Shown here: positions 7,024-64,000 of the stretch, one piece after another
How the letters are laid out: every line of letters starts with the position of its first letter
How positions within the stretch are numbered: position 1 is the first letter of the stretch
Virus record (IMG/VR): IMGVR_UViG_3300032323_001387
Coordinates: 1-64,000 of that record
Origin: a virus
Length of the DNA stretch: 64,000 bases
Reading direction: 5' to 3' (one strand)
Notes under the pieces: model-generated
Told to the model about the DNA's origin: nothing
The model's database searches: none
What the model saw: only the letters and a program-made list of their open reading frames with translations
Translations under genes and position numbers: made by a program

Positions 7024-7070
7024 GACTTTGTAATTTAGTTAGTGTATAATAAGACTATGTACTATAAATA
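7022..7070 (+). promoter_or_regulatory. Tandem sigma70 promoter and T4-type late box
   Basis: TTGACT(7022)-N17-TATAAT(7045), plus TATAAATA at 7063-7070. Confidence 0.7.
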
Positions 7071-15062: not shown

Positions 15063-16224
15063 TGGTTAATTCAGGTACTAATTCTGATAAGTTTTCTTCG
15101 CGACTCTGGTCCAATGAATCTGTATACTTTACAAAATCTCCCCACATATGATTCCAATCCTCTGCGTTCATATAATCAATTAGAGACTGGGCACGTTTTA
15201 TATGCAGATATGGTTGGAGTCTTTCTGCCGCTAACTTTTTTAAATTAGCCGGTAATACCCTAACGTTTAGATAATCCGGATGATCCAAAATGTTAAGATG
15301 TATGTCTTTTACATCCATGGACTCTAAATAGTCAAATAACTTATCTAGCTGCAAGATATTATACATTTGGACAGTACAGTGTACCTGCAGATCTATTTTA
15401 CCCTGTGCGCTCATTTCCACAAATTTAGCTAGATTCTTTTCAACAAGATTCCAGCCTGTGGGATATCTGATATACCTGTTAAGGTCGCCATATGCATCCA
15501 CACTGGCATTTATTTTTATCTTTTTAAAGTGCTGCCAATAGTCCACTAGCTTTTTAGGAAGGTTTGTGCAGTTTGTATTATACTTTAAGGTGATGTTTTT
15601 AGCAAGATCTAATTCGATCAACTTATCAAATAACTTATACTGACTGAGAGCAAGTGTAGGTTCTCCGCCTGTTAGATAAATCTCATCTATAGTGTTAGCG
15701 AGCTTCAACAAATTAACCGCAACTGCATCGTCGTTGGGCCAGTTCATACTACTCAGTCTTTTAACTTCAGTATCAGTTAGCTGCTGTTCAACTAGATGCC
15801 ACTCGTCAACCCATTGGTTACTGGCATATGGATTGCACATACGGCATTTCAAGTTGCACAGGTTACCTAAACGTATATCTATATACTGCACGTTTAATTC
15901 GGGTGTTACCACAGCCTCATAGTCAAACATGTATTTTTCGTTCCAAGCTTGGCGAGCACTGCGAACACCGCTATCCTCTTCTCTAAAGCAGCGTTCACAC
16001 ATCGCGGGTCGTTGATCATTTAACAATTCATGCCTGATGTTCTTCATAGTGTTGCTATGCCAGAAATCCTGCATGTCAGCATCTGTTATCTTATATGGTC
16101 GATTAGTGCCGTTTCTCAAAATAAAATTTTTGCCCGGAGTACTATTACAGCAGACCCTAAGATTACCACTGGCATTAGTGGCAAGGTGCATCCATGGCAG
16201 GATACAAAATGTTTTACTTTGCAT
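15052..16224 (-). CDS. N-terminal-twitch radical SAM protein
   Basis: CILPW..VCC..CERC, CNLKCRMC, GGEP. Confidence 0.92.
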   Translation of the reverse strand: MQSKTFCILPWMHLATNASGNLRVCCNSTPGKNFILRNGTNRPYKITDADMQDFWHSNTMKNIRHELLNDQRPAMCERCFREEDSGVRSARQAWNEKYMFDYEAVVTPELNVQYIDIRLGNLCNLKCRMCNPYASNQWVDEWHLVEQQLTDTEVKRLSSMNWPNDDAVAVNLLKLANTIDEIYLTGGEPTLALSQYKLFDKLIELDLAKNITLKYNTNCTNLPKKLVDYWQHFKKIKINASVDAYGDLNRYIRYPTGWNLVEKNLAKFVEMSAQGKIDLQVHCTVQMYNILQLDKLFDYLESMDVKDIHLNILDHPDYLNVRVLPANLKKLAAERLQPYLHIKRAQSLIDYMNAEDWNHMWGDFVKYTDSLDQSREENLSELVPELTNGR

Positions 16225-16954
16225 TTAATTCTTCTAATAAAAGATCGTAACTTCTACACATGGTCTCTGCATGTTTTTCTCCAGGAGCACCATGTATAAT
16301 CATATGTATACGTGGTTCTGTTCCCAGATGTCTTACACTGTGCTGCCTTCCTATATCAATGGCTCTTGCATCTCCTGCCTTCCAGGGAATCAATCCAGCA
16401 TCTTCCATGACAAATTCAACGCCATCGGGATTGTTAATAGCAACATTATATGCTGCCATTTTACGAACTTCATAATCGGCATGCTGCTTAATATAGCCAC
16501 CGGGCATTAATAGCATAAATCGAACTCTGTCAAAGCGTGTAAAGTTCCAAGTATTTTTTAACCAATTTACAGTAACAGGACAAACATCTGCAATTTCTGT
16601 CCAGGTATATTCTGGTTGTTCTGTGAAGTCATATGCTTTGCTACGCCAATCGTCTGTGGTGTGTTTATTATAGCCATGTAGTACTAGACTATGCCAGCCG
16701 GGATGTTCCTCGCCTCGGTGTTTGACAAACTCATCCATCAAAGCAAGAGCTTCTGCTTCCATTTCTTTCTGTGGCAATGGTAAATCTAATTTAAGACTTG
16801 GACAGTTGCTTTCTTTTTCTATCCAGTTAAAGTAATCTTTCATGACTTGCTTATCTGTTCTCCATGCAGAAAACTTCTCGGGACGAGTATTTAATGAACT
16901 ATAATGAGAAAAATCTTTCCACTGATCAAAAAAATTGTTTACTCGGTTATCCAT
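16214..16954 (-). CDS. Aspartyl/asparaginyl beta-hydroxylase-like 2OG-Fe(II) oxygenase
   Basis: RVRFMLLMPGGYIKQHAD (HxD)...HSV...PRIHMIIHG. Confidence 0.8.
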   Translation of the reverse strand: MDNRVNNFFDQWKDFSHYSSLNTRPEKFSAWRTDKQVMKDYFNWIEKESNCPSLKLDLPLPQKEMEAEALALMDEFVKHRGEEHPGWHSLVLHGYNKHTTDDWRSKAYDFTEQPEYTWTEIADVCPVTVNWLKNTWNFTRFDRVRFMLLMPGGYIKQHADYEVRKMAAYNVAINNPDGVEFVMEDAGLIPWKAGDARAIDIGRQHSVRHLGTEPRIHMIIHGAPGEKHAETMCRSYDLLLEELNAK

Positions 16955-23218: not shown

Positions 23219-24497
23219 AATTTAATAGCCTCGCCATCTCTGGGAATGTTTTAACAAAACTTTCATTTCTTTTTCCATCAACGAACATAATCGTGTTTTT
23301 GCGTCTTTCGTCTATGCTTTCGCTCCAGTCGTCGATAAACATCATAAAGTTAATAATATTATCAACTTGCATTTTGAAATTATTATCAATAGTTGATCTG
23401 TTGTTTAATAAAATTTGCTTTATCTGTTCTTTGACGGATATATGCAGGGTTCTGACATTAGAATATCCTGCAGGAGTGGTTACATAATGAGGACTAAAAT
23501 ATTTTTCCAATCCAATTGATGCTAACTCTTTGACAAATTCATGAATAGTCGCAATGTTGTATATGCTTATTGTAGCATCAATCAATGATTCATAGTTGTG
23601 TTTAGAGAAGAAATATGGCAATTTTTCTTTAACATCTGCCCAGTTTGCGCCGCTACGCTGGTAGTTAAACTTATCGCCAAAATCGTCGATGCTTACACTC
23701 CAGAATATCTTTTTAAATCTAGACAGCAACTCTTCTTGTTCCGGAGTAGGAATTATTGTGCCATTGGTATTATACCAAATAATAATCTTGCTAGCATCGA
23801 ACTTTTCATCTAAGGCCTTAAGCATTTCATAGTGCTCTTCTATCATCAGTGGCTCACCGCCCATAAGATGTATTATCTTTATATCATCAAAGCCATCTAT
23901 ATTTTTCCAAAAGTCTACATTGTCTATCCACTTGGCTTGTTGATTATAAGCGAACTCTGGACTCTGTTTGAAATCAGGATAAGACTCTCGTGTAGTTTTT
24001 TGCAGCTCATAGGATTCTTTAAGCCACTTTGCACTATTCCATAAACCGCAAATTCTGCAGGCAAGATTACATCTATTTCCTGCTTTTATTTCCAGCCATA
24101 CTAATTTTTGACTGGGGGCAGCGCCTTCTATAATTTTCTTTACTTCGTGGTATACTTTTAACGATGAAGAATATACATATCTACCACTGAATTTGTCATT
24201 GTGATAATCTCCCCAGCATGGCTTGCAAGAAGGGTGTTGTTCATTGTTCAGAAAGGACTGTCTAAATTTAATATGTGTTGGATGATTTATAATGTCAATA
24301 ATAGGCCGGCCGTTTGAATTAAATGTCGTACCATCATCATTTTTTAATGGGTCGCCTAGACAACAGGGCCTCACGTCACCATTAGATTCTATAGCAACGT
24401 GGTGAAAAGGCATTACACAAAAATTATTTGTGCTTAACCAATCGAATATTTTATTTTTTTCTGCGTCAGTTATAGTAACTGATCTGGAATTACTCAT
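23211..24497 (-). CDS. N-terminal-twitch radical SAM protein
   Basis: CVMPF..PCC..CKPC, CNLACRIC, GGEP. Confidence 0.9.
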   Translation of the reverse strand: MSNSRSVTITDAEKNKIFDWLSTNNFCVMPFHHVAIESNGDVRPCCLGDPLKNDDGTTFNSNGRPIIDIINHPTHIKFRQSFLNNEQHPSCKPCWGDYHNDKFSGRYVYSSSLKVYHEVKKIIEGAAPSQKLVWLEIKAGNRCNLACRICGLWNSAKWLKESYELQKTTRESYPDFKQSPEFAYNQQAKWIDNVDFWKNIDGFDDIKIIHLMGGEPLMIEEHYEMLKALDEKFDASKIIIWYNTNGTIIPTPEQEELLSRFKKIFWSVSIDDFGDKFNYQRSGANWADVKEKLPYFFSKHNYESLIDATISIYNIATIHEFVKELASIGLEKYFSPHYVTTPAGYSNVRTLHISVKEQIKQILLNNRSTIDNNFKMQVDNIINFMMFIDDWSESIDERRKNTIMFVDGKRNESFVKTFPEMARLLNYE

Positions 24498-25977
24498 TGA
24501 ATATATCTTTCATTTCAGGAAATGTTTCATAAAAACTTGTACCCCTGTGTGCATCGATTTTTTCTAAATAATCTTTCATCTCAGGCAGACGTACACTCCA
24601 GTCTTCGCTTTGCATAAATCTAATCAATCCACGCAAACGTTTGATGCCATAATCATTCATAATGAATACATCCCGACTTACTTCTTCGCCTGGACGAACT
24701 CCGTTCATGTAATTATCAGTCCACCATGGGATTAATTCTTCTTCAATTTTACGAGCAACTTCATCTTTAAACTTCTTAGGCAAAACTTTGACATTTAAGA
24801 AAGCAGGCCAGTATACAAAGTGGAAGTTGATACCACCAGCACCTAAAGGCCACATATTAATCTTTTTAAAGTTTTGTGTCATTTTCCATTTAATGAATTC
24901 TGGCAGGTAATAAATGTTCAATGCATTAACTGCACAGGCCACTGTAACTTCTACGTTATCAGTTGTCTGTGTGTCTAGTATATGAAAGACTTCTTCTGTG
25001 CGTTTCCAATCGCTGGGATAACGAATATATTCGTTATGCTTACCAAATGCATCTACGCTATAATGGAAACGAACAAGTTTGAAGTGGCTCCATAGTTCAA
25101 ATAAATCTTCTCTCCACTCTATGCCATTACTATTATAACGTATTTCCATGTCTTTAGCAACACCTTGACGTATACATTCTTCCAATATATCATAGTGTTC
25201 TTCAATGATCAATGCTTCGCCGCCGGCAAAGTATAATTGTTTCATATGCGGGATCTGTTGATAGAATTGCTCCCAGAACACAGGATTGTTCTTATGCCAA
25301 TTATAACTACTACCATTGGTGCTGCCTTTATTTTCCCAGTTCCAAATTTCTTTTACTTTATCATTTTCAATCTTAGGGTAGACTGCTTGCCAGTCTTTGA
25401 TCCAACCGCTGCTGTCATGGGGACTGCACATGATACAAGCAAGTTGACATTTTGTACCAAAACGCAGATCAATGTATCTTAATTTAGGAGGGATACTGCC
25501 ATCTTCATTTGTTTCTTGAATTAATTCGTCGATACTGACACGTTTACTCCAGTATTCAGTTTCCCACTGTCGTTTACTTCTATGGCCGGCTGCTTCTTCT
25601 TTGTAGCATTTTAAACAACTAGAAGGCTTTTCTCCCGCCATCATTTGTTTACGTACATTTTTCATATATGTACTATTCCAGCTTGACTCGAAGTCTGCAA
25701 CGTTTAAGTTATTGGGCCGGCCTTCTTCGTCTTTTAAAATTCCAATATTGCCACCATGTATCTTGTCATTGGTTGCACCTACACTACTGGCATTGGCTGT
25801 ACAACAAACACGCATTTGGCCATCCGGACGAGTGCTCAGGTGGATCCATGGTAATATACACCATGTTTTACTAACATTAAAATAATGCTTGGTTTTAAGG
25901 TTATAGTCTTTGTGCTTATTAATAAACTGTTGACTAATGTCTTTGCCGTTTTCGTCGAGTATAACTTTATCGTTCAT
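24490..25977 (-). CDS. N-terminal-twitch radical SAM protein
   Basis: CILPW..VCC..CLKC, CQLACIMC, AGGE. Confidence 0.9.
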   Translation of the reverse strand: MNDKVILDENGKDISQQFINKHKDYNLKTKHYFNVSKTWCILPWIHLSTRPDGQMRVCCTANASSVGATNDKIHGGNIGILKDEEGRPNNLNVADFESSWNSTYMKNVRKQMMAGEKPSSCLKCYKEEAAGHRSKRQWETEYWSKRVSIDELIQETNEDGSIPPKLRYIDLRFGTKCQLACIMCSPHDSSGWIKDWQAVYPKIENDKVKEIWNWENKGSTNGSSYNWHKNNPVFWEQFYQQIPHMKQLYFAGGEALIIEEHYDILEECIRQGVAKDMEIRYNSNGIEWREDLFELWSHFKLVRFHYSVDAFGKHNEYIRYPSDWKRTEEVFHILDTQTTDNVEVTVACAVNALNIYYLPEFIKWKMTQNFKKINMWPLGAGGINFHFVYWPAFLNVKVLPKKFKDEVARKIEEELIPWWTDNYMNGVRPGEEVSRDVFIMNDYGIKRLRGLIRFMQSEDWSVRLPEMKDYLEKIDAHRGTSFYETFPEMKDIFNE

Positions 25978-38529: not shown

Positions 38530-38537
38530 TATTTATA
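38530..38537 (-). promoter_or_regulatory. T4-type late promoter box TATAAATA
   Basis: Exact octamer in a 15-bp intergenic gap, 5 nt before ATG 38524. Confidence 0.6.
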
Positions 38538-50335: not shown

Positions 50336-50997
50336 ATCAATCGTATATCTCTAAGAAACAATTTTATTTTCTTTGCCAACTCTGCGTGTGCTTCCTCGTT
50401 GGGATGATATCCATCACTGCACTTCAAGCCTTTATTTAAACAATAAACTTCGTAGATAGATGTGTCGTAGCCTAGTACAAATTTCTTTGTTGGCAATAAC
50501 TTAACCATATTTTTATATTGGTTTTCAAAAGGTTCTTTATCTATATAACCTTCTAAAAAAGAATTTATAAAAGCATACTGTATGTTTCTAGCCTCCAGAA
50601 AAGATGCTACAAATATCTGTTGCATGTAATATTCCATCAGGCCTTCGTAGTCACTATAGAAATGCTCGTACCAAATATCTTTCATTTTTTTCAGATATTC
50701 TTCATATGGATCATGCCCCAGCAGTATGTTTTCCCATTGTTTCTTTTCTGGAAAATATACTGCTGTGCGTGATATGCCAGTCCAAGAAAATACCACCAAT
50801 GCCCTGGCTGGATGCTCTATGTCTGCAAAGTCATTTAACAAATTAATTATACTAAGCTTGTTAGAACCTCCTGGCACGCCTCTATTAACAACAGGGGTCT
50901 TCATTAAGTCTCCCAATTTAGCAGGCCATGCATCTTTGGACTTTATACCGTCTCCAGCAGTAAAGCTATCTCCGTATGCATAAATTTTATCAATCAT
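50332..50997 (-). CDS. SGNH/GDSL hydrolase-like protein
   Basis: YGDSFTAG, NRGVPGGSN, DGYHPNEEAH. Start moved to MIDK (50997). Confidence 0.78.
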   Translation of the reverse strand: MIDKIYAYGDSFTAGDGIKSKDAWPAKLGDLMKTPVVNRGVPGGSNKLSIINLLNDFADIEHPARALVVFSWTGISRTAVYFPEKKQWENILLGHDPYEEYLKKMKDIWYEHFYSDYEGLMEYYMQQIFVASFLEARNIQYAFINSFLEGYIDKEPFENQYKNMVKLLPTKKFVLGYDTSIYEVYCLNKGLKCSDGYHPNEEAHAELAKKIKLFLRDIRLI

Positions 50998-52435
50998 TTT
51001 CCTTATATACCCCTGTTTCGGCAAAAGTTATTCCTGATTGTTCTACTAGCTTAACTATCTCATAATTTTTATTAAGTTCTATGCTTTCGTACCAATTGGC
51101 TATTTCCGGAAATGTATTAACTATGTTTTTGTTTCTTCTAGCATCATACTGTGAATAGAAACTCTTAAAGTCGTGGAACAATGCAGACTTATCGTGAGTA
51201 GTAGATACGTGACCTGTTTGGACAACTTCTAAATAATCAATTAATCGTTTGATGCTGGCTTTTTCACCTGCTTCTAAATACCGACTATCTTTGTGCAGAT
51301 CATACCATGCTGATAGTTTCGAATGTACTTCATCTTTGAGATCGTTGGGCAACGTAACTGGGCTCATGTATGCAGGCCAGCGCAATATGTTTAGATCCAA
51401 ATAAGGTCTATTGTTTCCATATTTTTGTTTAAGTTCTAACATATCGTCCATGAATTCTGTTATACTAAACAAACATAGATTAGATATAGTCATCATGATG
51501 GTGACATTTCTAAACTTGGCATTTTCAATGAAGTTGACTAAGTTACTGCGCCATACTTTATAGTCCATACCATCACGCAGATACTCGGCATGTAAGCCAA
51601 AGCTTTCGTTGCTGGTAAACAAATCAAACTCTTTAACTGGCAGCGTTTTAGTTACTTCAATTAGTCTTTCCAAAGCTCTGGGGCTTGAACCTAGATTACT
51701 GTTAACCGCAAAGCGCATGTCCAAGTATTCATTCTTTTCGTTTATAATATCAATAAAGCGCCAAAAGTTTTGACTAACTGTACATTCGCCGCCAGTAATA
51801 CGTAGCTCTTGCAAGCTCTTAGATAATTCAGGCCACCATTCAAAGAACGCTTCCACATAGGGATTGTCATCCAAATGGCGCCCATATGCTGTGCTCCACG
51901 CTCCATCAGTCTGGTATGCACCCCCGCCACCGCCTTCAGCAATGAAGTTTTGATATGGGCCATTCTTGGCAATGTCATAGCTCCATGTTGTACTGTAACC
52001 TGCGTTACAATAGCTACAGGCAAAGTTACACTGTCTATCAAAACTGATCTCTAATGTTTTAAGATTAACATCGTCAGCCCAGTTCATGTCCTTGATTTTT
52101 TTAATATCTTCTGCGCTATATATAATACTTTTATTAATACGGTCGCTGATATTATTTCTACCAATGCCTTCCACTTTCCAACAATAGCCGCACTCTGCTG
52201 GCTTTTTGCCTTCCAGCATCATTTTACGCATACGCTTTTTGTGATCAGTGTTGTGCAAGCCGCTGGGGTTATAACTAATTTCGCTGACATCAATTGGATG
52301 CGGCAAAGGTAAGTGACAGCTACCAGTATAGCCAGATCCTAAAAAGATACTGGCGTTGTACCATTTAGCCGCACAGAAGCTGGGACTAATTGAATTTAGA
52401 TTTTCATCTCTCCATTTAATTAGATCATCAGACAT
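50990..52435 (-). CDS. N-terminal-twitch radical SAM protein
   Basis: CAAKW..SCH..CGYC, CNFACSYC, TGGE. Confidence 0.9.
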   Translation of the reverse strand: MSDDLIKWRDENLNSISPSFCAAKWYNASIFLGSGYTGSCHLPLPHPIDVSEISYNPSGLHNTDHKKRMRKMMLEGKKPAECGYCWKVEGIGRNNISDRINKSIIYSAEDIKKIKDMNWADDVNLKTLEISFDRQCNFACSYCNAGYSTTWSYDIAKNGPYQNFIAEGGGGGAYQTDGAWSTAYGRHLDDNPYVEAFFEWWPELSKSLQELRITGGECTVSQNFWRFIDIINEKNEYLDMRFAVNSNLGSSPRALERLIEVTKTLPVKEFDLFTSNESFGLHAEYLRDGMDYKVWRSNLVNFIENAKFRNVTIMMTISNLCLFSITEFMDDMLELKQKYGNNRPYLDLNILRWPAYMSPVTLPNDLKDEVHSKLSAWYDLHKDSRYLEAGEKASIKRLIDYLEVVQTGHVSTTHDKSALFHDFKSFYSQYDARRNKNIVNTFPEIANWYESIELNKNYEIVKLVEQSGITFAETGVYKEND

Positions 52436-54005
52436 CTTTGTTAATTACCTTTTGTTTCATTGCTTTACAAATATTATAAAACTCTGTGTACTCTGGATAT
52501 ACTTCTAAAAAGTTTGTACCATAACGACGATCCAAGTCATTGACAAAGTCATAGAACTTGGCACGATTTAGTGTAAAGTCTTTGTTGCCTTCTACATCAT
52601 TTTTAGAATTATAAGCAATATTCAAACACACACGTTTGAATTTTTCAAGCTCAAACTCTTCAAAGGCATGGTGCATTTTCCAAGTCTTAGTCTGTGTTGT
52701 ATGATCCGCCATATAGTTAATACTTGGCAGCAAATATTCTTGAATAAGATCTTTACTGGCCCACTGTGCATCCAAGAACGTTGGATTACGCAAGTAAGGC
52801 AAATCAATACCATTGATACTAGGATGACTTGTAGTCTTTTTACTTCTGTCTGTATATGACTCTCCAGGGAAAGCAAAGTTAAAGCCTGTGTCCTTTTCCC
52901 ACATGTTAGCGACAACGGGGTTAGGATTATATTTCTTTCTAAGTTCGAGCTGCCATTCAAACAATTTCTGTATGCTGGAAATACTTAGAATGTTAAACGT
53001 AACCATTGTGGTAATTCTAATATTACCCATTTGCATGATTTGTTCGTAACGCTTGCAGAACTTTTCAAAGTCCAGTCCTGGACGCAGATATTCCGCACGT
53101 TCACCCCAACCATCTACGCTGGTAAAGATAGTTAGCTTCTTGATATAGTTGCCACGACTTAGAATTTCTGCACGTTCGATAAACTTGTCCCACAGCTTGT
53201 CAGGTACACCCATATTAGTATTAATACTAAATTCAAGATCGGGGTTTGGATTGTCGATGAACCAGTCCATACTTCTATATGTTTCTTTGCTTAACAGCGG
53301 CTCGCCGCCTGTGATACGGAATACATGTAAGTGTTTGTAAGCTTCAGGCCACCATTTCCAAAATGCATCAATGTAAGGATTGAATTCACTGTTCTTATAA
53401 CTTAGACTGTCTAAGTCAGGTTGCCAGCCCTGTGCCCATACAGTGTGATCTGTATTTTCCAACAACTTAACTGGGCCGTTTTGTTTTAGTTCTTCTACCC
53501 ACTTACTACTATACTCGGGACCGCAGTACACGCATTTGAAGTTACATACGTTACTAAAGTCTACTTCTAAATAACTTGGATAAAAGTCTTTGTTAGGGTC
53601 GCTGGCTTGAATCTCGTCATGCTTTTCCAATGCCCATGGCTCTAAACTCTTATAGAATCTATCACTGGGACTTTTGTTATCTTCAACACGCCAGCAGTAA
53701 TCACATTCCTTTGGACGCTGTCCTTCCAGCATTTCTTTTCTAGCTTTTTTAAGCACACTAGTATTAAACAATGCGCCCGAATTCTTTTGAATTTCTTCTA
53801 AGGGGATTTTATGTGGCACTGGGTGGTGACAACTATGTGTCATTCCTGTGCCTAAGTGCATAGTAACTTGTGTAAACTTAGCAAGGCAAAAACCAGGCCC
53901 AGTGCTATCTAACAGTTCTTTTGTCTTATCAATATTTGGCCCGGTGCGAGCTACTTTATTGTCATAACCGATATCCCAATTGATATCACTGAGTTTCTTT
54001 TTCAT
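52428..54005 (-). CDS. N-terminal-twitch radical SAM protein
   Basis: CLAKF..SCHH..CDYC, CNFKCVYC, TGGEP. Confidence 0.9.
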   Translation of the reverse strand: MKKKLSDINWDIGYDNKVARTGPNIDKTKELLDSTGPGFCLAKFTQVTMHLGTGMTHSCHHPVPHKIPLEEIQKNSGALFNTSVLKKARKEMLEGQRPKECDYCWRVEDNKSPSDRFYKSLEPWALEKHDEIQASDPNKDFYPSYLEVDFSNVCNFKCVYCGPEYSSKWVEELKQNGPVKLLENTDHTVWAQGWQPDLDSLSYKNSEFNPYIDAFWKWWPEAYKHLHVFRITGGEPLLSKETYRSMDWFIDNPNPDLEFSINTNMGVPDKLWDKFIERAEILSRGNYIKKLTIFTSVDGWGERAEYLRPGLDFEKFCKRYEQIMQMGNIRITTMVTFNILSISSIQKLFEWQLELRKKYNPNPVVANMWEKDTGFNFAFPGESYTDRSKKTTSHPSINGIDLPYLRNPTFLDAQWASKDLIQEYLLPSINYMADHTTQTKTWKMHHAFEEFELEKFKRVCLNIAYNSKNDVEGNKDFTLNRAKFYDFVNDLDRRYGTNFLEVYPEYTEFYNICKAMKQKVINKDV

Positions 54006-55926: not shown

Positions 55927-56766
55927 TTAAATAAATTTTTTTCTTAGGTTAGTCAATGTTTCGGCGGTTAGCCATGCACTGGTATTATATTTAACTAAAC
56001 CCAATTGAACATAATTTTCAATTTTTATATCGCCCTGATCGTTTACCCAGTATGACAAAAATTCTGTCCATGGCTTTTTCGACCATTGGTCATTGACATA
56101 GCTGTTTTCCCTTAAACTTAAATCAATCAAATTAACAAAGTCAAACTTCGTTATTTTAAGTCCTAATATCTTATGCATCATTGACATTAACCATTCGGGC
56201 CATAGATATTTGGGGAATGGGGGCATTGCATTATTTTCTTTATCTGCAAAAAAATCAATGAATTCATTTTGATTATATTGCGACGCGATCAATACTGCCA
56301 TACCAAATACGTAATCGCAGCCTTTATCTCTGTTAAAATATATTGCATCAATAATTGATCCCTCTCCAAAACTTTTTTGTTCAGTGGATCCTTCTGTGTA
56401 CAATGAGTAATCAAGTAACTCGCCATTAAAACTAGATCTAGTTTTTGGCATAACAATGCTGTTCATACCCCTTAAATTTTCCCATACATCAATATTGAAG
56501 TTAGTTAAAATTTGATCAGGATTAAACGCAATGGTTTTTGTATAAGGACTTGCTAATAATGAGTGAAAATATGTTGCCGACAGGATGTTACTCGGCTCTA
56601 TATAAATTTCTCGATCAATGTATAGCAAATATTTTTTTAAGTTGTCTTCATGTGCAATGATGCTGATAGGCCGTTCTTTGTCAAACAGCCTAATACTCTT
56701 GATCAACAGTTCAACCTGTGTCAAGTTTTTCATTTTACAATCAACTATTAAATAACCTTCAGTCAT
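55927..56766 (-). CDS. GT-A-like protein (family 3), degenerate DxD
   Basis: GYLIV..LIKSIR..SPYTKTIAFNPD; paralogous pattern to 56759-57655. Confidence 0.5.
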   Translation of the reverse strand: MTEGYLIVDCKMKNLTQVELLIKSIRLFDKERPISIIAHEDNLKKYLLYIDREIYIEPSNILSATYFHSLLASPYTKTIAFNPDQILTNFNIDVWENLRGMNSIVMPKTRSSFNGELLDYSLYTEGSTEQKSFGEGSIIDAIYFNRDKGCDYVFGMAVLIASQYNQNEFIDFFADKENNAMPPFPKYLWPEWLMSMMHKILGLKITKFDFVNLIDLSLRENSYVNDQWSKKPWTEFLSYWVNDQGDIKIENYVQLGLVKYNTSAWLTAETLTNLRKKFI

Positions 56767-57655
56767 ATATCATTTGTTTTATTTTGTCATAATGTCTAAG
56801 AATAGCCATCTTATTCATTACGTGAACATTTTCGTTTTTAACTCTACTGGCAATATTTTTCCATAATTCTTTTGGGTCTGGGCAAATTAATAACATGTCA
56901 TTGATTTCTTTGAAATCTGCTATGTCGTCAATCTGTTCACTGAACCGCATAACTTTTCCGGGCAGTTCATGTATTAAGTTGCCTTGTCTATGGCCATTTA
57001 AAATATGCACTGCTATGCTTACTGCATAGTCTGTTCTAAACAACACTCCAGGAAACTTATATAACCATTTGTAGTAGTTGTAATTTTCCTTGACATGTTC
57101 CCATACTCCAAAGAACAGTTTGGCTAATTCGCTGTCGCTTCTCCAGTATACAGCAGTTGACCACCACATGTCAATGCCATCTGGGTGTAATTTTTGTTCC
57201 CAAATACGTGGTTTATAATTACGAACACTTAATGCATGTTTGTACATAGCGACTTCACTGTCGGTATCAAATATAGCATCTAATGTGTCGTTGCCAATCA
57301 AGTAGTCAACGTCTATCATTAACGTTTTATTATAAGGACTCTTGTTAAAAATACTATGCTTATTTTTATTGTTGAATTGCGTAGTAAACTCGTTCCATGG
57401 ACTGTCACGATGTGTTCTTGTATTACGTTCGTGCGTTACATTGTCAATGATAATATGATCAAATGTCTGAGCAGCGAGACTTGGCGTTAGTTCTAATTGT
57501 AATGCGTCAAACGTGGGTTGATCTGTTAACAGAGTTACATGATTATTCGTCATGTGTAGTTTTACACATCTAGCTGCCACTAATGCTAGTTTTTCATAAT
57601 CAATTTTACCGTTGTTGTAGGCAATAAGCAATATACCAGAATCAAATTTACTCAT
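56759..57655 (-). CDS. Putative GT-A glycosyltransferase (family 3, GT8/GT71-like)
   Basis: GILLIA, SPYNKTLMIDVDY (DxD), RTDYAVSIA, HVMNK. Confidence 0.6.
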   Translation of the reverse strand: MSKFDSGILLIAYNNGKIDYEKLALVAARCVKLHMTNNHVTLLTDQPTFDALQLELTPSLAAQTFDHIIIDNVTHERNTRTHRDSPWNEFTTQFNNKNKHSIFNKSPYNKTLMIDVDYLIGNDTLDAIFDTDSEVAMYKHALSVRNYKPRIWEQKLHPDGIDMWWSTAVYWRSDSELAKLFFGVWEHVKENYNYYKWLYKFPGVLFRTDYAVSIAVHILNGHRQGNLIHELPGKVMRFSEQIDDIADFKEINDMLLICPDPKELWKNIASRVKNENVHVMNKMAILRHYDKIKQMIYD

Positions 57656-58013
57656 TTAAACCAACCAACCCTTTTGTGTCACGTTGTTTTTTAAGTTTTT
57701 CATTTTCCACATAGTATTCATTTAATGCTTCTGTGTATGCACTAAAAAGTTTTTCGTGGAATTCTTTGATGTTAGTAACCAGTACTGGATTTTCGTTGTC
57801 GTCTAAGAATATATAACGCTCGACATCTAAGTCAATTAGTTGTTTGACAAAATTAAGTAATTCTAGTTTTGCTGTAAAAAGTGAACTCATGTAACCAATA
57901 GTTAACATAGTGTTCATACGTTGTTTGAGATTTAGCTTTTGGTTGTTCAGTGTTAACCTATAGTTACTGAACTCCAAAGCCGCTTTGAGTTTTTCATCCA
58001 TCCAGAGCTCCAT
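57648..58013 (-). CDS. Hypothetical protein
   Basis: 121 aa; first gene after the TATAAATA box. Confidence 0.75.
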   Translation of the reverse strand: MELWMDEKLKAALEFSNYRLTLNNQKLNLKQRMNTMLTIGYMSSLFTAKLELLNFVKQLIDLDVERYIFLDDNENPVLVTNIKEFHEKLFSAYTEALNEYYVENEKLKKQRDTKGLVGLNE

Positions 58014-58030
58014 TATGTGCTATTTTAATT

Positions 58031-58058
58031 TATTTATATCACAAAACAGCAATTTGTG
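58031..58058 (-). promoter_or_regulatory. Late box TATAAATA with upstream CACAAATTG motif, heading the enzyme cluster
   Basis: Minus strand reads CACAAATTGctgttttgtgaTATAAATA. Confidence 0.6.
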
Positions 58059-58064
58059 GACGGT

Positions 58065-59306
58065 TCAAACAGGTTGTTCGGTGTAATCATATAGATTAAC
58101 AGGATCATTAACACTATTCAGAAGGTTGACTAGTAACTGCATTATAACTATTATAATATTTTTTATTTGGGTACGTTCGGCAGAAGTAACTGGTATGCCA
58201 TTGTTATTAAGAGAATTTACTAAAGCAGTTGTTATGTCATCGGAACTAATATTAACATCTAATACATTAGCAAAACCAAAATCGACAGCACTATATTTTA
58301 ATGTGGTTCTTGTATAAATTTTTCCGCCATTAGTAAAAGAAGTTTGATTTGTTTGTTTTGGTGTTGCTGTCAGAAGATAAATTACATTGGTATTATTTCC
58401 AAGAGCATCATTTATTATAGAGTTAAAAGAATCGATTCCTGCATTTAATTCTGCATCTATAGACGATTCGCTAATAGTTGCACCGAATTGGCTTTGTACA
58501 TAAGAAATCAATTCACTTATTTTTTGTCTCATTAACGAATCATAAACTATAGAATTTCTTTCCGAGCTACTTACTTGAAGATTGGATTTTGTTACATCAC
58601 CCATCCATCCTGTAAAATTTCTATTAGCAATAAATAATCCTAGGCTACCATTTGAAGGAGACCAATTTACTGTTCGTGTGATTACATTTGGTGTAACACT
58701 GATACTAGTATCATTAATTGTAACAGTAGTATTTGCCTGACCGTTATTCAAACTAATAGCAAATGTTTCTGTTCCTTCTGTAGTAGTATCTGCAGTAACG
58801 TTAAATGTTAAAACTTGCCCGTTGGACACTGAACCAGACAGAGACGCTCCTCCAATATCTGCCGATGATACTCCGGTGATAGTATAAGGAAAACTACCTG
58901 ACTGATTGGTATTAAATGTAATATTAAAACTGGATCCTTCATTTGCATTATTGACTGATCTTGTAAATGAATATGATGGATTAGCAGGAGCAACATACCC
59001 GCACGTCACACTGTTTGGCGTGTCTTCGTTGTATGTCCCGCCGTTGCCATTTGCCTTTGTTACTCTGTATGTATAAGTGCCGGGAACACAACCTTGACTT
59101 ACAATGGTTCCTGCTGGAGTAAATGATGTATCATTAATTGTAATAGGAGCACTTAAATTACCAATAACTTGGCCACGAACAGAGTCTCTGCGAATTTGAA
59201 CTGACATTGTTTTTTGTCCGTCAGTTAGTTGATCTGCATCAACATTTACAGTAAAACTGCCAGTATTGTTATTAACAATAAAAGATCCGCTTTTAGATTC
59301 TGCCAT
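58065..59306 (-). CDS. Virion structural protein with Ig/Calx-beta-like repeats
   Basis: NEG...ADTTTEGTETF...TINDTS repeat; Thr/Ser/Asn-rich; AAGGAAG RBS. Confidence 0.7.
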   Translation of the reverse strand: MAESKSGSFIVNNNTGSFTVNVDADQLTDGQKTMSVQIRRDSVRGQVIGNLSAPITINDTSFTPAGTIVSQGCVPGTYTYRVTKANGNGGTYNEDTPNSVTCGYVAPANPSYSFTRSVNNANEGSSFNITFNTNQSGSFPYTITGVSSADIGGASLSGSVSNGQVLTFNVTADTTTEGTETFAISLNNGQANTTVTINDTSISVTPNVITRTVNWSPSNGSLGLFIANRNFTGWMGDVTKSNLQVSSSERNSIVYDSLMRQKISELISYVQSQFGATISESSIDAELNAGIDSFNSIINDALGNNTNVIYLLTATPKQTNQTSFTNGGKIYTRTTLKYSAVDFGFANVLDVNISSDDITTALVNSLNNNGIPVTSAERTQIKNIIIVIMQLLVNLLNSVNDPVNLYDYTEQPV

Positions 59307-59314
59307 GTACTTCC

Positions 59315-60511
59315 TTAACTTATGTTAGACGTCCAATATAAAGTTGTTCCATCGGGTATGTTTGTAGTATTGACTGTAACTGTAACATTGCCGCCTTCAT
59401 TCACACTAGAACTACTTGCTACTGGGCTAGCTGTCGGCACAGGTGGTGTATACGACGAACCTGAATATGTAGGACCGGTAATATTAAATGATGCGGATCC
59501 GCTTGTTTTTGGAATCGCTTTATTAGTTTCAACGTGCAGGGTATGTGTTCCTGTAACTGCTGAAGTATTGGCACAGCTTAATTGAACAGTCAATACTAAT
59601 CTTACTGGGCCATCTACGTAATTTGAACCAACCGGAACTATTCTACCGTAAATTCGAATTTTCTGGCTTCCAGCGCCGCCGTTGCCGTAACCATAAGATC
59701 CATAACCATAGCCGTATCCATACCCGTAGCCATAGCCGTATCCGTCGTAACAGTTGCCATAGCCGTATCCATAACCATAGCCGTATCCATAACCATAGCC
59801 GTATCCATAACCACCACCGCTGCCACTACGGCAATTAACTGTTAATAATAATTGATCAGTTCCATTTAAATCCTCGAAGCCTTTGCCTTCGCTGATAATG
59901 TTAGCAGTAGTGGATAATGTATTATCTAAGTTAAAGCTAACTGTGCCCAGACGTTGGTAAACATAGGCCCAGCTTGCTGCTAAATTATTGCCGCCGACTG
60001 ATGATAAGTTTAATCTAATAGAGCTACCGCTGTTAAAATAATGTCTAGCCTTTTGATAATTAGCAAAACCCAAGTTAACTGTATAAGTCAATGTACCAGA
60101 AAATCCACTGGTATGTGCAATATTTCCCAATATGCCAATGGCAGTCTGACCCATTGCGGCTGTATTTTTCTTAGGGTCGATGTCTAATAGTACTGTATCC
60201 AAATCTTGCCAAATACTGGCTGTGATTTTTTGACCAGAAATAACTCTATCTAATTCATATTGGCCACCTACGTGCTCAGAACTTAAATTAAGACGATCAA
60301 CAACTTGATTAACTAATGCGGCACTAACTTTGGTTCCAACGTTTACTGAATTCGCTTCTGTATTTCCCCAGCCATATGCTTGTAATGCACGTCTAACTAA
60401 ATTTGCAGTAGGAGTGCTTGTAGGATAATTGTCAGCAAAAATTTTGTTGGTTCTACTAACCAACGCATTATAATCATTTGCCGTGATCTTTTTGCCGACT
60501 GCTACTGTCAT
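59315..60511 (-). CDS. Virion structural (tail/baseplate-associated) protein with (GY)n tract
   Basis: KITANDYNAL/KITASIW repeats, ARHYFNSG, internal Gly-Tyr tract, C-terminal half of an Ig-like repeat unit (its first strands). Confidence 0.7.
   Translation of the reverse strand: MTVAVGKKITANDYNALVSRTNKIFADNYPTSTPTANLVRRALQAYGWGNTEANSVNVGTKVSAALVNQVVDRLNLSSEHVGGQYELDRVISGQKITASIWQDLDTVLLDIDPKKNTAAMGQTAIGILGNIAHTSGFSGTLTYTVNLGFANYQKARHYFNSGSSIRLNLSSVGGNNLAASWAYVYQRLGTVSFNLDNTLSTTANIISEGKGFEDLNGTDQLLLTVNCRSGSGGGYGYGYGYGYGYGYGYGYGNCYDGYGYGYGYGYGYGYGSYGYGNGGAGSQKIRIYGRIVPVGSNYVDGPVRLVLTVQLSCANTSAVTGTHTLHVETNKAIPKTSGSASFNITGPTYSGSSYTPPVPTASPVASSSSVNEGGNVTVTVNTTNIPDGTTLYWTSNIS
59684..59812 (-). 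repeat. Gly-Tyr dipeptide tandem repeat (19 Tyr in 43 codons)
   Basis: (GY)9-G-NCYD-(GY)7-G-SYGYG. The 18-bp unit GGTTATGGATACGGCTAT occurs three times in perfect tandem. Confidence 0.95.
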
Positions 60512-61473
60512 TATTTAACGCCCACCGCGGCTTCAACTAAGCCAACTTCTTCTGTTTCTTTATGCCCTATTGCTCGGCCAATTATCGCCATAGTATCATT
60601 TAAATGATCTGTGGCCATGCCAACACCATCTATGTCACTAGGGACAATACGCTGGCCTGCTCTAATAGGTCCTTTTACTAAACAAGGCACACGACCTTTT
60701 AGTGCAACAGGGTATGCATGTTCTTGCATTTTCATTCTGCTATTCAACAAGAAGCCAGGGGCTGTACTGATAACACCAAATACTTGATCATCCCATGCTC
60801 TAACTGTTTTTGTAATTTCTGCGGCACCGCCTAAACGTACTAAGTTGCCAGGTAGCAAAGGAGTATCGGCACGATAAATTTCAGCCATATCCGCAAATTC
60901 TGCTTCAACTGTTCTGCCGCGCAACTTAAAGTTACCCCAAGTTTCTTCGCCTACGTCTGCTGTACCGCTTTGATTTAAGTTAATACCTTGTCCTATTATT
61001 GGAAATGGATTCGCTAACGCGGCATCGGGGCCGCCCGGTGTATATGTGCCAGCATCGCTGCTCATAATAGCAACTACAACCTTGTTAACGACAAACTGCA
61101 TAGCAGGATGCACACCACCTGTTGTATCTGTTATGTTGCCAATTTTAATACCAGTTTTCTTACCGCCGATTAAATCTCTTCCGCCTAATGGACTCCAGCC
61201 GCCTGCTGTATAAATGTTGATAACTTCGTTAACGCTGTCATACCACAATTGGCCAATGATTGGATTTACTAATTTAGAATCTAATGGTTGGTATGTAGTA
61301 AGGCTACCTGGGCTAGAAAAATGTTCTAACATTTGAACTAGGTTTTCGGCCATAATTTCGCCATAGCCTGCGTAATTCTTACCTATAAGCTTTATAGGTG
61401 TAGTTATGTCAACTGTTCTATCTGCTAGAATAGTTAATCTAGTTCCGTCTGTTTTGGTTACATCATATGCCAT
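60511..61473 (-). CDS. Tail fibre/appendage-like protein with C-terminal peptidase G2-like autocleaving chaperone domain
   Basis: N-terminal LIGKNYAGYGE..ENL..MLEHF..GQLWYD; C-terminal ADMAE..GVIST.P..VALKGRVP..IIGRA. Confidence 0.7.
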   Translation of the reverse strand: MAYDVTKTDGTRLTILADRTVDITTPIKLIGKNYAGYGEIMAENLVQMLEHFSSPGSLTTYQPLDSKLVNPIIGQLWYDSVNEVINIYTAGGWSPLGGRDLIGGKKTGIKIGNITDTTGGVHPAMQFVVNKVVVAIMSSDAGTYTPGGPDAALANPFPIIGQGINLNQSGTADVGEETWGNFKLRGRTVEAEFADMAEIYRADTPLLPGNLVRLGGAAEITKTVRAWDDQVFGVISTAPGFLLNSRMKMQEHAYPVALKGRVPCLVKGPIRAGQRIVPSDIDGVGMATDHLNDTMAIIGRAIGHKETEEVGLVEAAVGVK

Positions 61474-61507
61474 CTATCGAAATTCCTTTAATATAATATT
61501 TATCTAA

Positions 61508-62080
61508 TTACATTCTGATGCGTAAAGTATAGATTACTTGTATTACGCGATTTGCTGATTTTGTCACTGGGCTAAATGCCACATGAGATAGTAAGAATCC
61601 TGTGTTTAAACCGCTTGTACCTTTGCTTTTTAGTCCTATTTCATTGAAAATCAATTCCCCCGAATTAGCAGTTGGTTGATTTTCTTCTAACGTACAAGTT
61701 ACTATTAAATCAGTATAAGTCAAACCTTCGCTATGCTCAATTGATATATTATTTCGTGTTACATCATCGTTGTTAGTCTCGTCTAAATCGTCAATGACTT
61801 TGTAATATATTGGATTATACAAGTCTGCCAACAAGCCTAGTTCCAAATTTTGTTCTACATCTTTAACAGTAGTACTACCAGTTTCATCAATGACAACGCC
61901 GCCGTTGCCCATGTGTAATTCATAGATATACTGACTGTTATTTCCCTGTAACATTCTAGCCACTATCAAGCTCATTGTTTCAGAATTTATAGCATTGTGG
62001 ACGTCCAGCAGTAGATCTCCTGTGGCAAGATCTACTATCTTAACAAATCCTTCGATGTTTAATTTTATTTGGCTCAGCAT
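61508..62080 (-). CDS. Putative baseplate/tail-associated structural protein
   Basis: HNAI..FNEIGL..LLSHVAF.PV.KS.NR.IQVIYTLRI pattern; lies between structural genes. Confidence 0.55.
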   Translation of the reverse strand: MLSQIKLNIEGFVKIVDLATGDLLLDVHNAINSETMSLIVARMLQGNNSQYIYELHMGNGGVVIDETGSTTVKDVEQNLELGLLADLYNPIYYKVIDDLDETNNDDVTRNNISIEHSEGLTYTDLIVTCTLEENQPTANSGELIFNEIGLKSKGTSGLNTGFLLSHVAFSPVTKSANRVIQVIYTLRIRM

Positions 62081-62115
62081 ATGTTTTCCTTACATTTATT
62101 TAATCTTATATTTAA

Positions 62116-64000
62116 CTACGCATTTAATATTAATTGGCCATTTTCGTAGATTAGCAGTTCCTCACCGATTTCCAATTCTACTGGTTCAATCACAGTTCTA
62201 TTGACTGTTCCGCCGCGAATTTTATCTCGATATGATTTTACTGTATTATAAAAATTAGTAAGTACCGTGATTTGATCTCGCTGCAAGTAGTCATCAGTTT
62301 TCAATGTAGAGCTAATCAAGTTAACCGGTTCCACTGTGCTAGACTTTGCTAACCAATCTACACCAATCTGCTCACGCATTACATAGCGGAACATTGTACA
62401 TACAATTTTACTGTAATATTTAGAATATTGACCTGTGAATATTTCATAGCGCAATGAATCTAATATAGCATTATAAACACTGTTTAGATCATAATCCCAT
62501 GGCAACTTATCCCACCCAACAGTATCATATGAACTTAGACTCCAAGGAGCATATAAATCGCTGGAGAATTCAATGGCTCCTTTTGTTTTATACACCGGGC
62601 CAAAACTACCGTCGACATTCTTTTCATATATTGTATAATCACGTATACCTGTATTAACTTTGATATACGAACCGGAAGTTACTGTAGTTGTGTAAATATC
62701 AGCGGCTGATTCTAACACCAATGATATTTCTTTAGTCGGGTCAAATGTTTCACTTCGGTAATCAGTGTAGCTCCAAAATCTAGGCACATTGATGATTTCG
62801 TCACCGACGACATAAAACTCGTTATTGAGTCTAGTATTGCCCCAGGTGTCAATATTGGAAATATTAACACTAATCATAATCTCATTTAATTTCTTAATAA
62901 ATGTTCGTCTTGCTTCGATAGTATCATCAAACCAACTTTGAACATATGGGCGCACTAAGTTACCTAATCTACTGTATGGATGTAGATTGAAGATATCAGG
63001 CACATTTTTTGTTATATTGAAATCTAATGTGTTACGTACAGGATCTATATCTCTTACACTTAAACTTCCAGGTGGTAACACCTGCCACTTACTTGGATTC
63101 CAAGCTCCAGTGGTTGTATCTTTGCACACATAGATATTGTCATTGTAAATTACAATATCTAGGTAGCCGTAAGTTACGGACTGTTTATAGCCTTGTATTG
63201 GAAGTTTTTGCCAAGCATCTTCATTGAATGTTCCTGTAGTTGTATAACGACAAACGAAAAAGTATCCATTATACTTGACAAGGTCATCCTGAGTATATGT
63301 ATTATTATTATTGTAATGTACATACTCTGCTCTCTTTCTATAGAATATATGTGCACTTAAACTATCACGCAGTCTGACATGTAACCATTCAGGAATAGTT
63401 TCGACAGTGTTATTTTCAGATATGAAAATCCATTGCTGGTGTTTTTCATTGCCTTTGATTTTTTTCTTAATCTGTACAACTGTACTTGTATTATTCAAGT
63501 ATGGCTGAATTCCTTTGAGTACAATAGCATTATTGCTAATAGGTGCCCACCATGGAATCCCGGCTGCACTAGGATTTAATAAGACTTTGCTTAACTGTTC
63601 AGTGGTATATACTCTAGATTGTTTACTTTGTTCGGCAATAACATTTTTATTTTTAACCCAGAAATAGTAAACAGTATATGTTTCGCCGTTGATGTAATCT
63701 TCCTCTTCCACCCAATGATAATTATCAGTGTCAAGGGAGCGGTCGACATAAACTTCGCCAGAGGCTACTTGGTCAAAGGCCACTAATCCTTTTTCTACCA
63801 TTTTATTCCATTGGCTAGGAGGTACAGGGCTCTTTGTCCATTCATAGACATCGGGCAATTTACCGTTAACTGTAGTTCCCCAATATTTTTCCTTAGTTGA
63901 TTCGTCACCACTTTCGTAGTCACTGAATTGAACTGTGCTAAGATCCCACCAACGGCGGCCGATAAATTCTTCGTGCCATCCCAAACTGGTATATACTGAT
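62116..64000 (-). CDS. Large virion structural protein (baseplate-wedge-like), 5'-truncated; two CBM5/12-like repeats
   Basis: Frame is open to the window edge. Repeats Y..D.V.YN...VC...T.G..N...WQ.L. Confidence 0.65.
   Translation of the reverse strand, partial: SVYTSLGWHEEFIGRRWWDLSTVQFSDYESGDESTKEKYWGTTVNGKLPDVYEWTKSPVPPSQWNKMVEKGLVAFDQVASGEVYVDRSLDTDNYHWVEEEDYINGETYTVYYFWVKNKNVIAEQSKQSRVYTTEQLSKVLLNPSAAGIPWWAPISNNAIVLKGIQPYLNNTSTVVQIKKKIKGNEKHQQWIFISENNTVETIPEWLHVRLRDSLSAHIFYRKRAEYVHYNNNNTYTQDDLVKYNGYFFVCRYTTTGTFNEDAWQKLPIQGYKQSVTYGYLDIVIYNDNIYVCKDTTTGAWNPSKWQVLPPGSLSVRDIDPVRNTLDFNITKNVPDIFNLHPYSRLGNLVRPYVQSWFDDTIEARRTFIKKLNEIMISVNISNIDTWGNTRLNNEFYVVGDEIINVPRFWSYTDYRSETFDPTKEISLVLESAADIYTTTVTSGSYIKVNTGIRDYTIYEKNVDGSFGPVYKTKGAIEFSSDLYAPWSLSSYDTVGWDKLPWDYDLNSVYNAILDSLRYEIFTGQYSKYYSKIVCTMFRYVMREQIGVDWLAKSSTVEPVNLISSTLKTDDYLQRDQITVLTNFYNTVKSYRDKIRGGTVNRTVIEPVELEIGEELLIYENGQLILNA

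Follow-up and report, generated by a model that had tools for sequence, protein, structure and literature searches.

A length-variable Gly-Tyr loop in a putative tail-fibre-module protein of a large uncultured phage

The 64,000-nucleotide stretch analysed here (the window) comprises positions 1 to 64,000 of the IMG/VR virus record IMGVR_UViG_3300032323_001387 and is part of the 172,208-bp genome of a lake phage. On its minus strand, the gene for a giant virion protein of 2851 residues is followed by genes for a 190-residue protein, a fibre-like protein (P0027), a 398-residue protein (P0001), the P0026 protein, and proteins of 121, 298, 279, 321 and 323 residues. Two N-terminal-twitch radical S-adenosylmethionine (SAM) enzymes (N_Twi_rSAM) and the rest of a sugar-tailoring cluster, which spans ~47 kb in this source phage, complete the order. 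Our subject is a tract of alternating Gly and Tyr residues within P0001. The tract is real and selected, and it is a variant of a known theme, that of glycine-rich, variable adhesin tips.

The Gly-Tyr tract and the protein that carries it

The tract reads (GY)9-GNCYD-(GY)7-GSYGYG, and its 43 residues are 19 Tyr and 20 Gly, with Asn, Cys, Asp and Ser present once each. It is preceded by VNC(227)-R-SGSGG and followed by NGGAGS, so that one cysteine (Cys227) lies just N-terminal to the tract and a second (Cys254) within its central GNCYD break. Glycine is encoded by GGT, GGA, GGC and GGG, and tyrosine by TAT and TAC. The first arm contains three mismatch-free copies of the 18-bp unit GGTTATGGATACGGCTAT, and Tandem Repeats Finder describes the tract as a repeat of period 18 with 6.6 copies and 76% matches. 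The initial annotation, made from the sequence alone, had recorded the tyrosine count, the mixed codons and the triplicated unit, all of which match the sequence. No other run of three or more GY dipeptides is found in the six reading frames of the genome, and the tract is thus not a chance occurrence.

Comparison with the closest relatives of the source phage (L007, L008 and L009), in which the N-terminal domain is 88–91% identical, reveals 13–25 synonymous and 0–2 non-synonymous codon differences in the tract, in addition to in-frame indels. The GNCYD segment is unchanged among these phages; it is also kept in the four closest relatives and in P0002. This combination of many synonymous changes, few non-synonymous changes and in-frame indels indicates that tract composition is under purifying selection while its length drifts, which bears out the earlier suggestion that the repeat is maintained at the protein level.

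Across 53 distinct tract-bearing proteins, the tract ranges from 16 to 61 residues (median 38) with 7–23 Tyr, and nearly all of the tracts are divided by a central polar break. A cysteine at relative position 0.42–0.55 is present in 18 of the 53, in both (GY)n and (GGY)n lineages, and nine have a Cys at the end of the tract as well. Tyrosine counts in the two arms are correlated (r = 0.75, n = 18, with kinship ignored). The tract may thus be regarded as a two-armed, hairpin-like projection in which the arms probably pair.

An AlphaFold2 (AF2) model of P0001 made with the homologue alignment has a predicted local distance difference test score (pLDDT) of 81 and a predicted template modelling score of 0.76. 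The predicted domains are (i) a helical N-terminal domain (residues 1–115), (ii) a galectin-like or jelly-roll-like β-sandwich (residues ~123–357) and (iii) a 43-residue C-terminal half-domain. The model places the tract in a disordered loop joining strands 221–227 and 284–293, with pLDDT below 50 for residues 231–281. Fold comparison with VIA-align gave weak matches to a Csp-protease jelly-roll (Z 7) and galectins (Z 5–5.6) and, among phage proteins, to the Klebsiella phage Kp9 tail fibre gp42 (Z 5.3) and the HFTV1 tail fibre (Z 4.5); scores of 5–7 are too weak for naming a fold family. Foldseek found no match in the PDB at E ≤ 0.001, and the matches in BFVD are exclusively uncharacterised proteins from uncultured phages. 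P0001 matches no family in Pfam-A (hmmscan, E ≤ 0.01), PHROGs or NCBIfam, and the same three collections gave no match for the five genes downstream of it. Neither megablast of positions 56000–64000 nor tblastn of P0001 produced a match among 50,697 phage records.

A word-indexed search with residues 1–228 returned 24 proteins of 303–362 residues that are 30–81% identical to P0001. In 23 of them a G/Y tract of variable length occupies the same β-sandwich loop, indicating that the tract is a feature of the family and not an insertion, as had initially been supposed. The invariant or nearly invariant motifs in this alignment are NK[VI]F[AS]D and GWGN in the N-terminal domain and AR[YH][YF]FNS[GA] in the β-sandwich; as search patterns, the family motifs led to 286 viral-contig stretches that were confirmed by tblastn. 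Among 1.84 billion cluster representatives, phmmer detected 179 relatives at E ≤ 1e-3 and 37 at E ≤ 1e-10. A tract with at least six Tyr is present in eight of 134 full-length phmmer representatives, always after the N-terminal domain, at residues 225–337 of the protein, and built from units that include GY, GGY, GYS, YGS and SY. In a hand-picked alignment of distant members, the G/Y-rich stretches share one block, which ranges from a turn of ~10 residues with a single Tyr to 61 residues.

The P0001-type domain also forms the terminal part, at either end, of much longer proteins, the largest having 2829 residues. Examples are L027/L122 (989 residues), L028 (604 residues), L029 (957 residues), P0155, P0211, P0251, P0280 and P0283. 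Given its occurrence at either end of long proteins, the domain is best described, from these sequences, as a probable mobile module of large tail proteins.

Gene neighbourhood and downstream enzymes

Features of the locus are collected in Table 1. The succession of giant virion protein, 190-residue protein, fibre-like protein, P0001, 121-residue protein and GT8-like protein (glycosyltransferase family 8) recurs in the family. From the fibre gene through P0001, the 121-residue, GT8-like and candidate GT2-like genes to the N-terminal-twitch radical SAM gene, the order is kept in ~75 loci of uncultured phages and in one cultured phage, RsoM2USA. When all window proteins were compared by tblastn with 86 loci, the 121-residue gene was found in 76, the GT8-like gene in 74, the 323-residue gene in 66 and N_Twi_rSAM in 53. 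P0001 diverges much faster than its neighbours: in L044 it is 27% identical, versus 58% for the 323-residue gene product.

Table 1. Features of the P0001 locus and of the surrounding window
Feature	Position	Strand	Basis or remark
Giant virion structural protein gene, 2851 aa, 3′ part	62116..64000	-	phrog_10938; open reading frame (ORF) extends to genome position 70671
190-aa conserved-module protein	61508..62080	-	phrog_11259; in 78/86 loci
P0027, 320-aa fibre-like protein	60511..61473	-	phrog_15511, phrog_6427, phrog_19602 (tail fiber)
P0001, 398-aa G/Y-loop protein	59315..60511	-	ORF; AF2; 24 homologues
Gly-Tyr tract	59684..59812	-	residues 234-276 of P0001; low-confidence AF2 loop
Tract arm 1, (GY)9	59759..59812	-	three exact 18-bp unit copies
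Tract central break GNCYD	59744..59758	-	aa 252-256, midpoint Cys254; homologue alignment
Tract arm 2, (GY)7, codons diverged	59702..59743	-	
Split Calx-beta/Ig-like domain	59120..59445	-	end of P0001 and start of P0026
P0026, 413-aa protein	58065..59306	-	only in source phage, L007, L010
Putative late-promoter consensus TATAAATA	58031..58038	-	in 51-nt gap ahead of 121-aa gene
121-aa conserved protein	57648..58013	-	directly after G/Y-protein family in 76 loci
GT8-like glycosyltransferase, 298 aa	56759..57655	-	GT-A fold, DxD D115/D117
Candidate GT2-like protein, 323 aa	54015..54986	-	three paralogues in cluster; language-model look-alikes only
Two adjacent N-terminal-twitch radical SAM genes	50990..54005	-	NF033640; first of 11 genome paralogues
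Other TATAAATA copy	38530..38537	-	
Radical SAM paralogue with many close homologues	24490..25977	-	
Asp/Asn β-hydroxylase-like gene	16214..16954	-	PF05118, E 5e-11
Other TATAAATA copy	7063..7070	+	

The octamer TATAAATA, the T4-type late-promoter consensus, occurs three times in the window, versus ~10 copies expected, and all three are intergenic and co-oriented with downstream genes. One of them lies in the gap before the 121-residue gene, which suggests that the enzyme block is expressed late. P0001 had been proposed to be a virion-type protein just upstream of an enzyme cluster, and its place in a tail module, with the promoter consensus before the enzyme block, is in keeping with this. 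The spacing was less accurate: the first identifiable enzyme, the GT8-like protein, is not two but three genes downstream, past the genes for P0026 and the 121-residue protein. In pelagimyophages and cyanomyophages, a 'host recognition cluster' groups tail fibres, glycosyltransferases and radical SAM cassettes (PMC7029224), and the layout in the source phage fits this arrangement. T4-like environmental genomes with 12 radical SAM genes have also been described (PMC5332604).

The only cultured phage with the radical SAM gene is the Ralstonia jumbo phage RsoM2USA (MG752970), which we located through that gene and synteny and which contains the whole module. Its ORF355 consists of a P0027-type adaptor (E 1e-9) fused to a P0001-type β-sandwich (E 1e-5); thus the β-sandwich and downstream module are homologous in the two phages, whereas the adaptor is fused in one and a separate gene, P0027, in the other. 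ORF355 has no tract, and its loop is a short SEGSGT turn. Homologues of the 121-residue, GT8-like, 323-residue and radical SAM genes follow, together with two more. In the record (215949–223553, L087) these are ORF355, ORF354, the GT8-like ORF353, ORF350, the N_Twi_rSAM ORF349, ORF348 and ORF347, all annotated as hypothetical. ORF361, the positional counterpart of the 2851-residue protein, was identified in RsoM2USA virions by mass spectrometry (PMC8504454). Four features of P0001 point to a component that binds receptors or lies distally in the tail: fast evolution, a lectin-like fold, a place after the fibre gene and the fusion seen in RsoM2USA.

A single Calx-beta/Ig-like domain is divided over two proteins, with its first part in the C-terminal 43 residues of P0001 and the remainder in the N-terminal ~60 residues of P0026. 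The split recurs at L007:11040–11360 and L010:10960–11280, in phages at 91% and 57% identity, and its retention at these distances argues that it is not an error. A gap of 8 nt (2 nt in L010) separates the two ORFs, with the second in the −1 frame and preceded by the ribosome-binding site AAGGAAG. A programmed −1 frameshift from P0001 into P0026 was considered and rejected: a TAA in the −1 frame ten bases ahead of the stop codon leaves ~3 codons for the slip, and there is no slippery heptamer. The split suggests a trans-complementation that docks P0001 with P0026.

AF2 gives a confident GT-A model (pLDDT 94) for the GT8-like protein. Its DxD residues, D115 and D117, are invariant across 37 aligned sequences, and its top Foldseek matches, at E ~1e-6, are glycogenin, GlyE, LgtC and the catalytic domain of UGGT. 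The protein also has an invariant tyrosine, Tyr199, 84 residues past the DxD. In glycogenin, the self-glucosylated Tyr is ~93 residues beyond the DxD; the likeness in spacing may be a coincidence.

The genome encodes 11 NF033640 (N_Twi_rSAM) paralogues above the curated cut-off. The cluster also contains RmlC, three short-chain dehydrogenases/reductases (SDRs), a split thiamine diphosphate (ThDP) enzyme, a carbamoyltransferase, a nitroreductase, SGNH/DUF6071 proteins and an Asp/Asn-hydroxylase-like protein. When the cluster ORFs were scanned with Pfam and NCBIfam, no RiPP recognition element (RRE) or PqqD domain was detected; the radical SAM-related families listed were Radical_SAM, SPASM, Fer4_12 and NF033640, and several ORFs had no match of any kind. 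We found no paper on NF033640 enzymes. One radical SAM paralogue, with 70–96% identity to more than 120 protein clusters, is conserved to a degree that is very high for an accessory gene in a phage; it has 2825 homologues at E ≤ 1e-20, none with an informative name. The Asp/Asn β-hydroxylase-like gene lies within the radical SAM part of the cluster. Action of its product on the N-C-Y-D break was considered and dropped, as the tract has no EGF-like context. PF05118 enzymes act on lipid A too.

Co-occurrence of the tract and the enzymes

The initial annotation proposed the tract as a candidate substrate of the downstream enzymes and named a lack of co-occurrence as a refuting outcome. Scanning IMG/VR with patterns from the family alignment yielded 80 loci with identities of 26–91%. 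A locus counted as tract-bearing if its best 30-residue window contained no fewer than 8 Tyr and no fewer than 20 Gly plus Tyr. For the radical SAM gene, presence required tblastn E < 1e-10, and absence was accepted only where at least 9 kb of downstream sequence was available; one locus, L078, was scored by whole-contig search. Among the 60 scorable loci, many of them close kin, 28 have both tract and radical SAM gene, 3 have the tract only, 27 have the radical SAM gene only and 2 have neither. On a tree of N-terminal domains, the tract switches state four times and the radical SAM gene three times, and no independent pair co-varies. N_Twi_rSAM is missing from the (GGY)n clade (L034, L036 and L041), as judged with complete searches of two of its contigs (63 and 81 kb).

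Searching from the tract gives a similar result. An exact DNA pattern for (GY)7 matched at least 118 viral-contig stretches. When 80 of the corresponding ORFs (L088–L167) were compared with hidden Markov models of the P0001 domains, 15 matched the family and 65 did not. The flanks of the 65 unrelated loci contain no homologues of the cluster genes, and a radical SAM (PF04055) gene is present in none of ten sampled contigs with unrelated GY-tract proteins, six of which are at least 90% complete. Gain and loss of the tract are therefore independent of the radical SAM and sugar enzymes, which are equally present beside tract-less homologues, that of RsoM2USA among them. As far as specificity goes, the counts and the tree give no co-occurrence, and the dedicated-substrate idea is not supported.

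Possible functions of the loop and related systems

We give about an even chance to the reading that the tract serves as an adhesive loop: it would be expandable, have two arms that present tyrosines, and sit on a lectin-like domain that binds receptors. As a fallback, the initial annotation offered a sticky or self-assembling loop without modification, and this is what the evidence favours. P0001 would be a tail-fibre-module protein of large aquatic and soil myophages, and its tract would have arisen in one lineage by expansion of a surface loop that is hypervariable and lies in the lectin-like β-sandwich. Replication slippage of 6- to 18-bp units would shorten and lengthen the loop, and selection would hold both its composition of Tyr and small residues and its two arms around a central polar or Cys-containing break. 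The arms would pair, with the (GY)n period matching a β-strand and the (GGY)n period a polyglycine-II helix, and the Tyr rings would be presented on one face. A period-2 repeat in a β-strand is familiar from silk GAGAGY, and stacking of aromatic rings on sugars is the norm in lectins. Multivalent and of low specificity, the projection could then adhere to glycans or proteins of the host envelope, in the manner of Tyr/Gly/Ser-rich antibody complementarity-determining regions (CDRs) or gp38 adhesin tips. Modification by the neighbouring enzymes would not be needed, and these would stay in the fibre-adjacent module with or without the loop expansion. Arm pairing, exposure on the virion surface and adhesion are the elements of this model that we infer. 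Repeated expansion into Tyr and small-residue repeats of differing period argues for a composition-dependent function, and the independence of the enzymes from the tract makes a sticky surface loop likelier than a dedicated substrate.

Several points weigh against an adhesive loop. AF2 gives the tract a pLDDT of 31–40, and hence no structure and no support for or against a hairpin. The correlation between the arms takes no account of shared ancestry. The virion location of P0001 comes from synteny only, PHROGs having no match for the protein. Receptor-binding loops usually diversify, and the monotonous composition seen here would be in keeping, too, with an array of acceptors, a site of cross-linking or an elastic spacer. 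Lastly, a GT8-like enzyme with glycogenin among its best solved matches is encoded only three genes away.

Some of the same properties could reflect a role in assembly. The arms might zip with those of neighbouring subunits or with another fibre protein, through silk- or amyloid-like packing, midpoint-Cys disulfides or oxidative dityrosine, and so stiffen or anchor the complex. That GYGYGYG peptides self-assemble into fibrils (PMC8163036) is consistent with such packing, as are the recurrence of the midpoint Cys in independent lineages, with or without a basal Cys, and the conservation of composition with a free sequence register. However, tract length differs between near-identical phages, and the existence of many tract-less relatives, including the cultured RsoM2USA, makes an essential assembly role unlikely; we view the assembly explanation as a minority possibility. 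A functionless stretch of slippage-prone, low-complexity DNA would account for the exact 18-bp copies and the frequent in-frame indels, but not for a tract in which synonymous differences are many and non-synonymous ones almost none, and which is retained in relatives down to 30% identity. We consider neutrality extremely improbable.

The remaining explanations invoke the downstream enzymes. In one, the GT8-like enzyme would start sugar chains on the loop tyrosines, and the other glycosyltransferases and the nucleoside diphosphate (NDP)-sugar cluster would extend them into a glycan brush, with the tract multiplying an ancestral acceptor Tyr. The GT8-like gene follows the family immediately in 74 of 86 loci, and does so in RsoM2USA as well; its invariant DxD, its resemblance to glycogenin, GlyE and UGGT, the late-promoter consensus ahead of the block and the RmlC, SDR, ThDP-enzyme and carbamoyltransferase genes in the cluster would all suit this scheme. 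One Tyr is kept in the short loop of tract-less relatives, in an uncertain alignment, and virion glycosylation has a precedent in mycobacteriophages (Freeman 2023, cited in PMC12619734). Yet the enzymes are equally present beside tract-less homologues, RsoM2USA has Phe rather than Tyr aligned at the loop position, and the Foldseek scores of glycogenin and of the lipopolysaccharide enzyme LgtC are indistinguishable. Pelagimyophage glycosyltransferases of this kind have been read as modifiers of the host O-antigen (PMC7029224), and any virion protein might serve as the acceptor, if an acceptor exists. Use of the tract as a glycan display site, as first suggested, is conceivable given the conserved glycogenin-like neighbour, to which nothing ties the tract; we judge a tyrosine acceptor array to be quite unlikely. 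In a broader version, the whole fibre-adjacent module (the 121-residue protein, GT8-like enzyme, GT2-like candidate, radical SAM enzymes and ~47-kb cluster) would build an unusual Tyr-linked glycan on the tail-fibre protein, with (GY)n again multiplying an ancestral acceptor, and would amount to a phage-encoded system for Tyr-linked glycosylation of the virion; this seems to us more doubtful still. Alternatively, N-terminal-twitch radical SAM enzymes could cross-link the tyrosines (C–C or C–O), splice the chain at XYG sites or otherwise modify G-Y-G. The 11 paralogues downstream, the presence of a radical SAM gene next to the module in 55 of the 60 scorable loci and the use of XYG by the radical SAM spliceases of the PlpX/PlpY system (PMC10849128) speak for this idea, but the near-equal numbers of radical SAM loci with (28) and without (27) the tract, the (GGY)n clade lacking the enzyme, and the ten other GY-tract phage contigs, all without a radical SAM gene, speak against it. 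The enzymes have an N-terminal twitch or SPASM domain, no ORF scanned with Pfam contains an RRE or PqqD domain, and the NDP-sugar enzyme neighbours favour sugar chemistry. We regard radical SAM modification of the tract as very improbable. The further suggestion of a 3,4-dihydroxyphenylalanine (DOPA)-type adhesive was dropped, as no tyrosinase, P450 or other Tyr-hydroxylating family was detected among the Pfam-scanned cluster ORFs, many of which are unannotated.

Annotation is almost wholly lacking for the receptor-binding proteins of large aquatic phages that are uncultured, and the P0001 family provides a recognisable marker: an expandable loop of Tyr and small residues at a fixed site of a lectin-like domain, beside a conserved glycosyltransferase/radical SAM module. 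Should the adhesive loop prove to be a generic sugar-binding surface, it would represent a minimalist binding loop of natural origin, by which adsorption proteins could be predicted in metagenomes. The negative co-occurrence result separates the tract from the radical SAM/sugar cluster, and a search for the substrate of that cluster should therefore not be anchored on the loop. The conserved module beside the fibre gene is the more interesting question, and one made testable by the cultured RsoM2USA.

Among the closest parallels to an adhesive loop are the gp38 adhesins of T-even-like (Straboviridae) phages (Dunne et al. 2018; PMC12032242). In both cases Gly-rich repeats are located at the tip of a tail-fibre-associated protein, and variable segments occur in both, as do repeats conducive to recombination or slippage. 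The (GGY)n variants of the P0001 family also share the three-residue period of the gp38 polyglycine-II helix (PMC12032242). The two are not related in sequence, P0001 having no Pfam match, and their folds appear to differ: gp38 consists of a β-helix and a three-layer polyglycine-II sandwich, whereas P0001 is modelled as a helical domain and a galectin-like or jelly-roll-like β-sandwich with the tract left unmodelled, and no gp38 chain is among the fold matches listed for it. In addition, the Gly motifs of gp38 form a conserved scaffold, whereas in P0001 the repeat itself is the variable, Tyr-rich part. We found no paper on G/Y loops in phage tail proteins and no phage paper containing GYGYGY.

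Antibody CDR loops rich in Tyr, Gly and Ser provide a second parallel, being likewise loops of Tyr and small residues with interspersed Cys and variable length on a β-sandwich. In antibodies, Tyr-rich loops spaced by Gly or Ser suffice for binding, as with the Tyr/Ser 'binary code' antibodies, and Tyr alone can give most of the binding energy. The resemblance is an analogy only, with no homology and no somatic diversification, and binding by P0001 is putative. The germline segments of bovine ultralong CDR-H3 are themselves GYG/Cys repeats (PMC7366855).

For the enzymes, the comparison with glycogenin (GT8) extends to the GT-A fold and DxD of the 298-residue protein, and Tyr hydroxyls in a flexible loop would be an acceptor of the appropriate type. 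However, the identity is ~15% and the TM-score is 0.3–0.5, LgtC and UGGT score alike, and glycogenin modifies itself. With respect to spliceotide precursors and the PlpA/PlpX/PlpY system, G-Y-G is formally an XYG site and radical SAM genes are nearby. Spliceases have a SPASM motif and a separate RRE partner and act on Nif11-type peptides (PMC10849128), whereas the enzymes considered here are of the N-terminal-twitch family NF033640, the scans described above revealed no RRE and the tract lies inside a folded virion-type protein.

The unrelated GY-tract proteins also merit comment. The 65 ORFs that do not match the P0001 family encode proteins of ~20–300 residues, largely composed of G/Y/D/S repeats, in phage contigs of ~4–360 kb. 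Like P0001, these small (Gly-X)n proteins have long (GY)n runs derived from hexamer repeats and change rapidly in length, but they are repeats over their whole length, whereas the P0001 tract accounts for 43 of 398 residues and is inside a folded domain. From their sequences they appear to be a separate, widespread repeat-protein family. In some of these small G/Y proteins, for example L092, L096 and L129, the repeat is followed by a conserved C-terminal domain.

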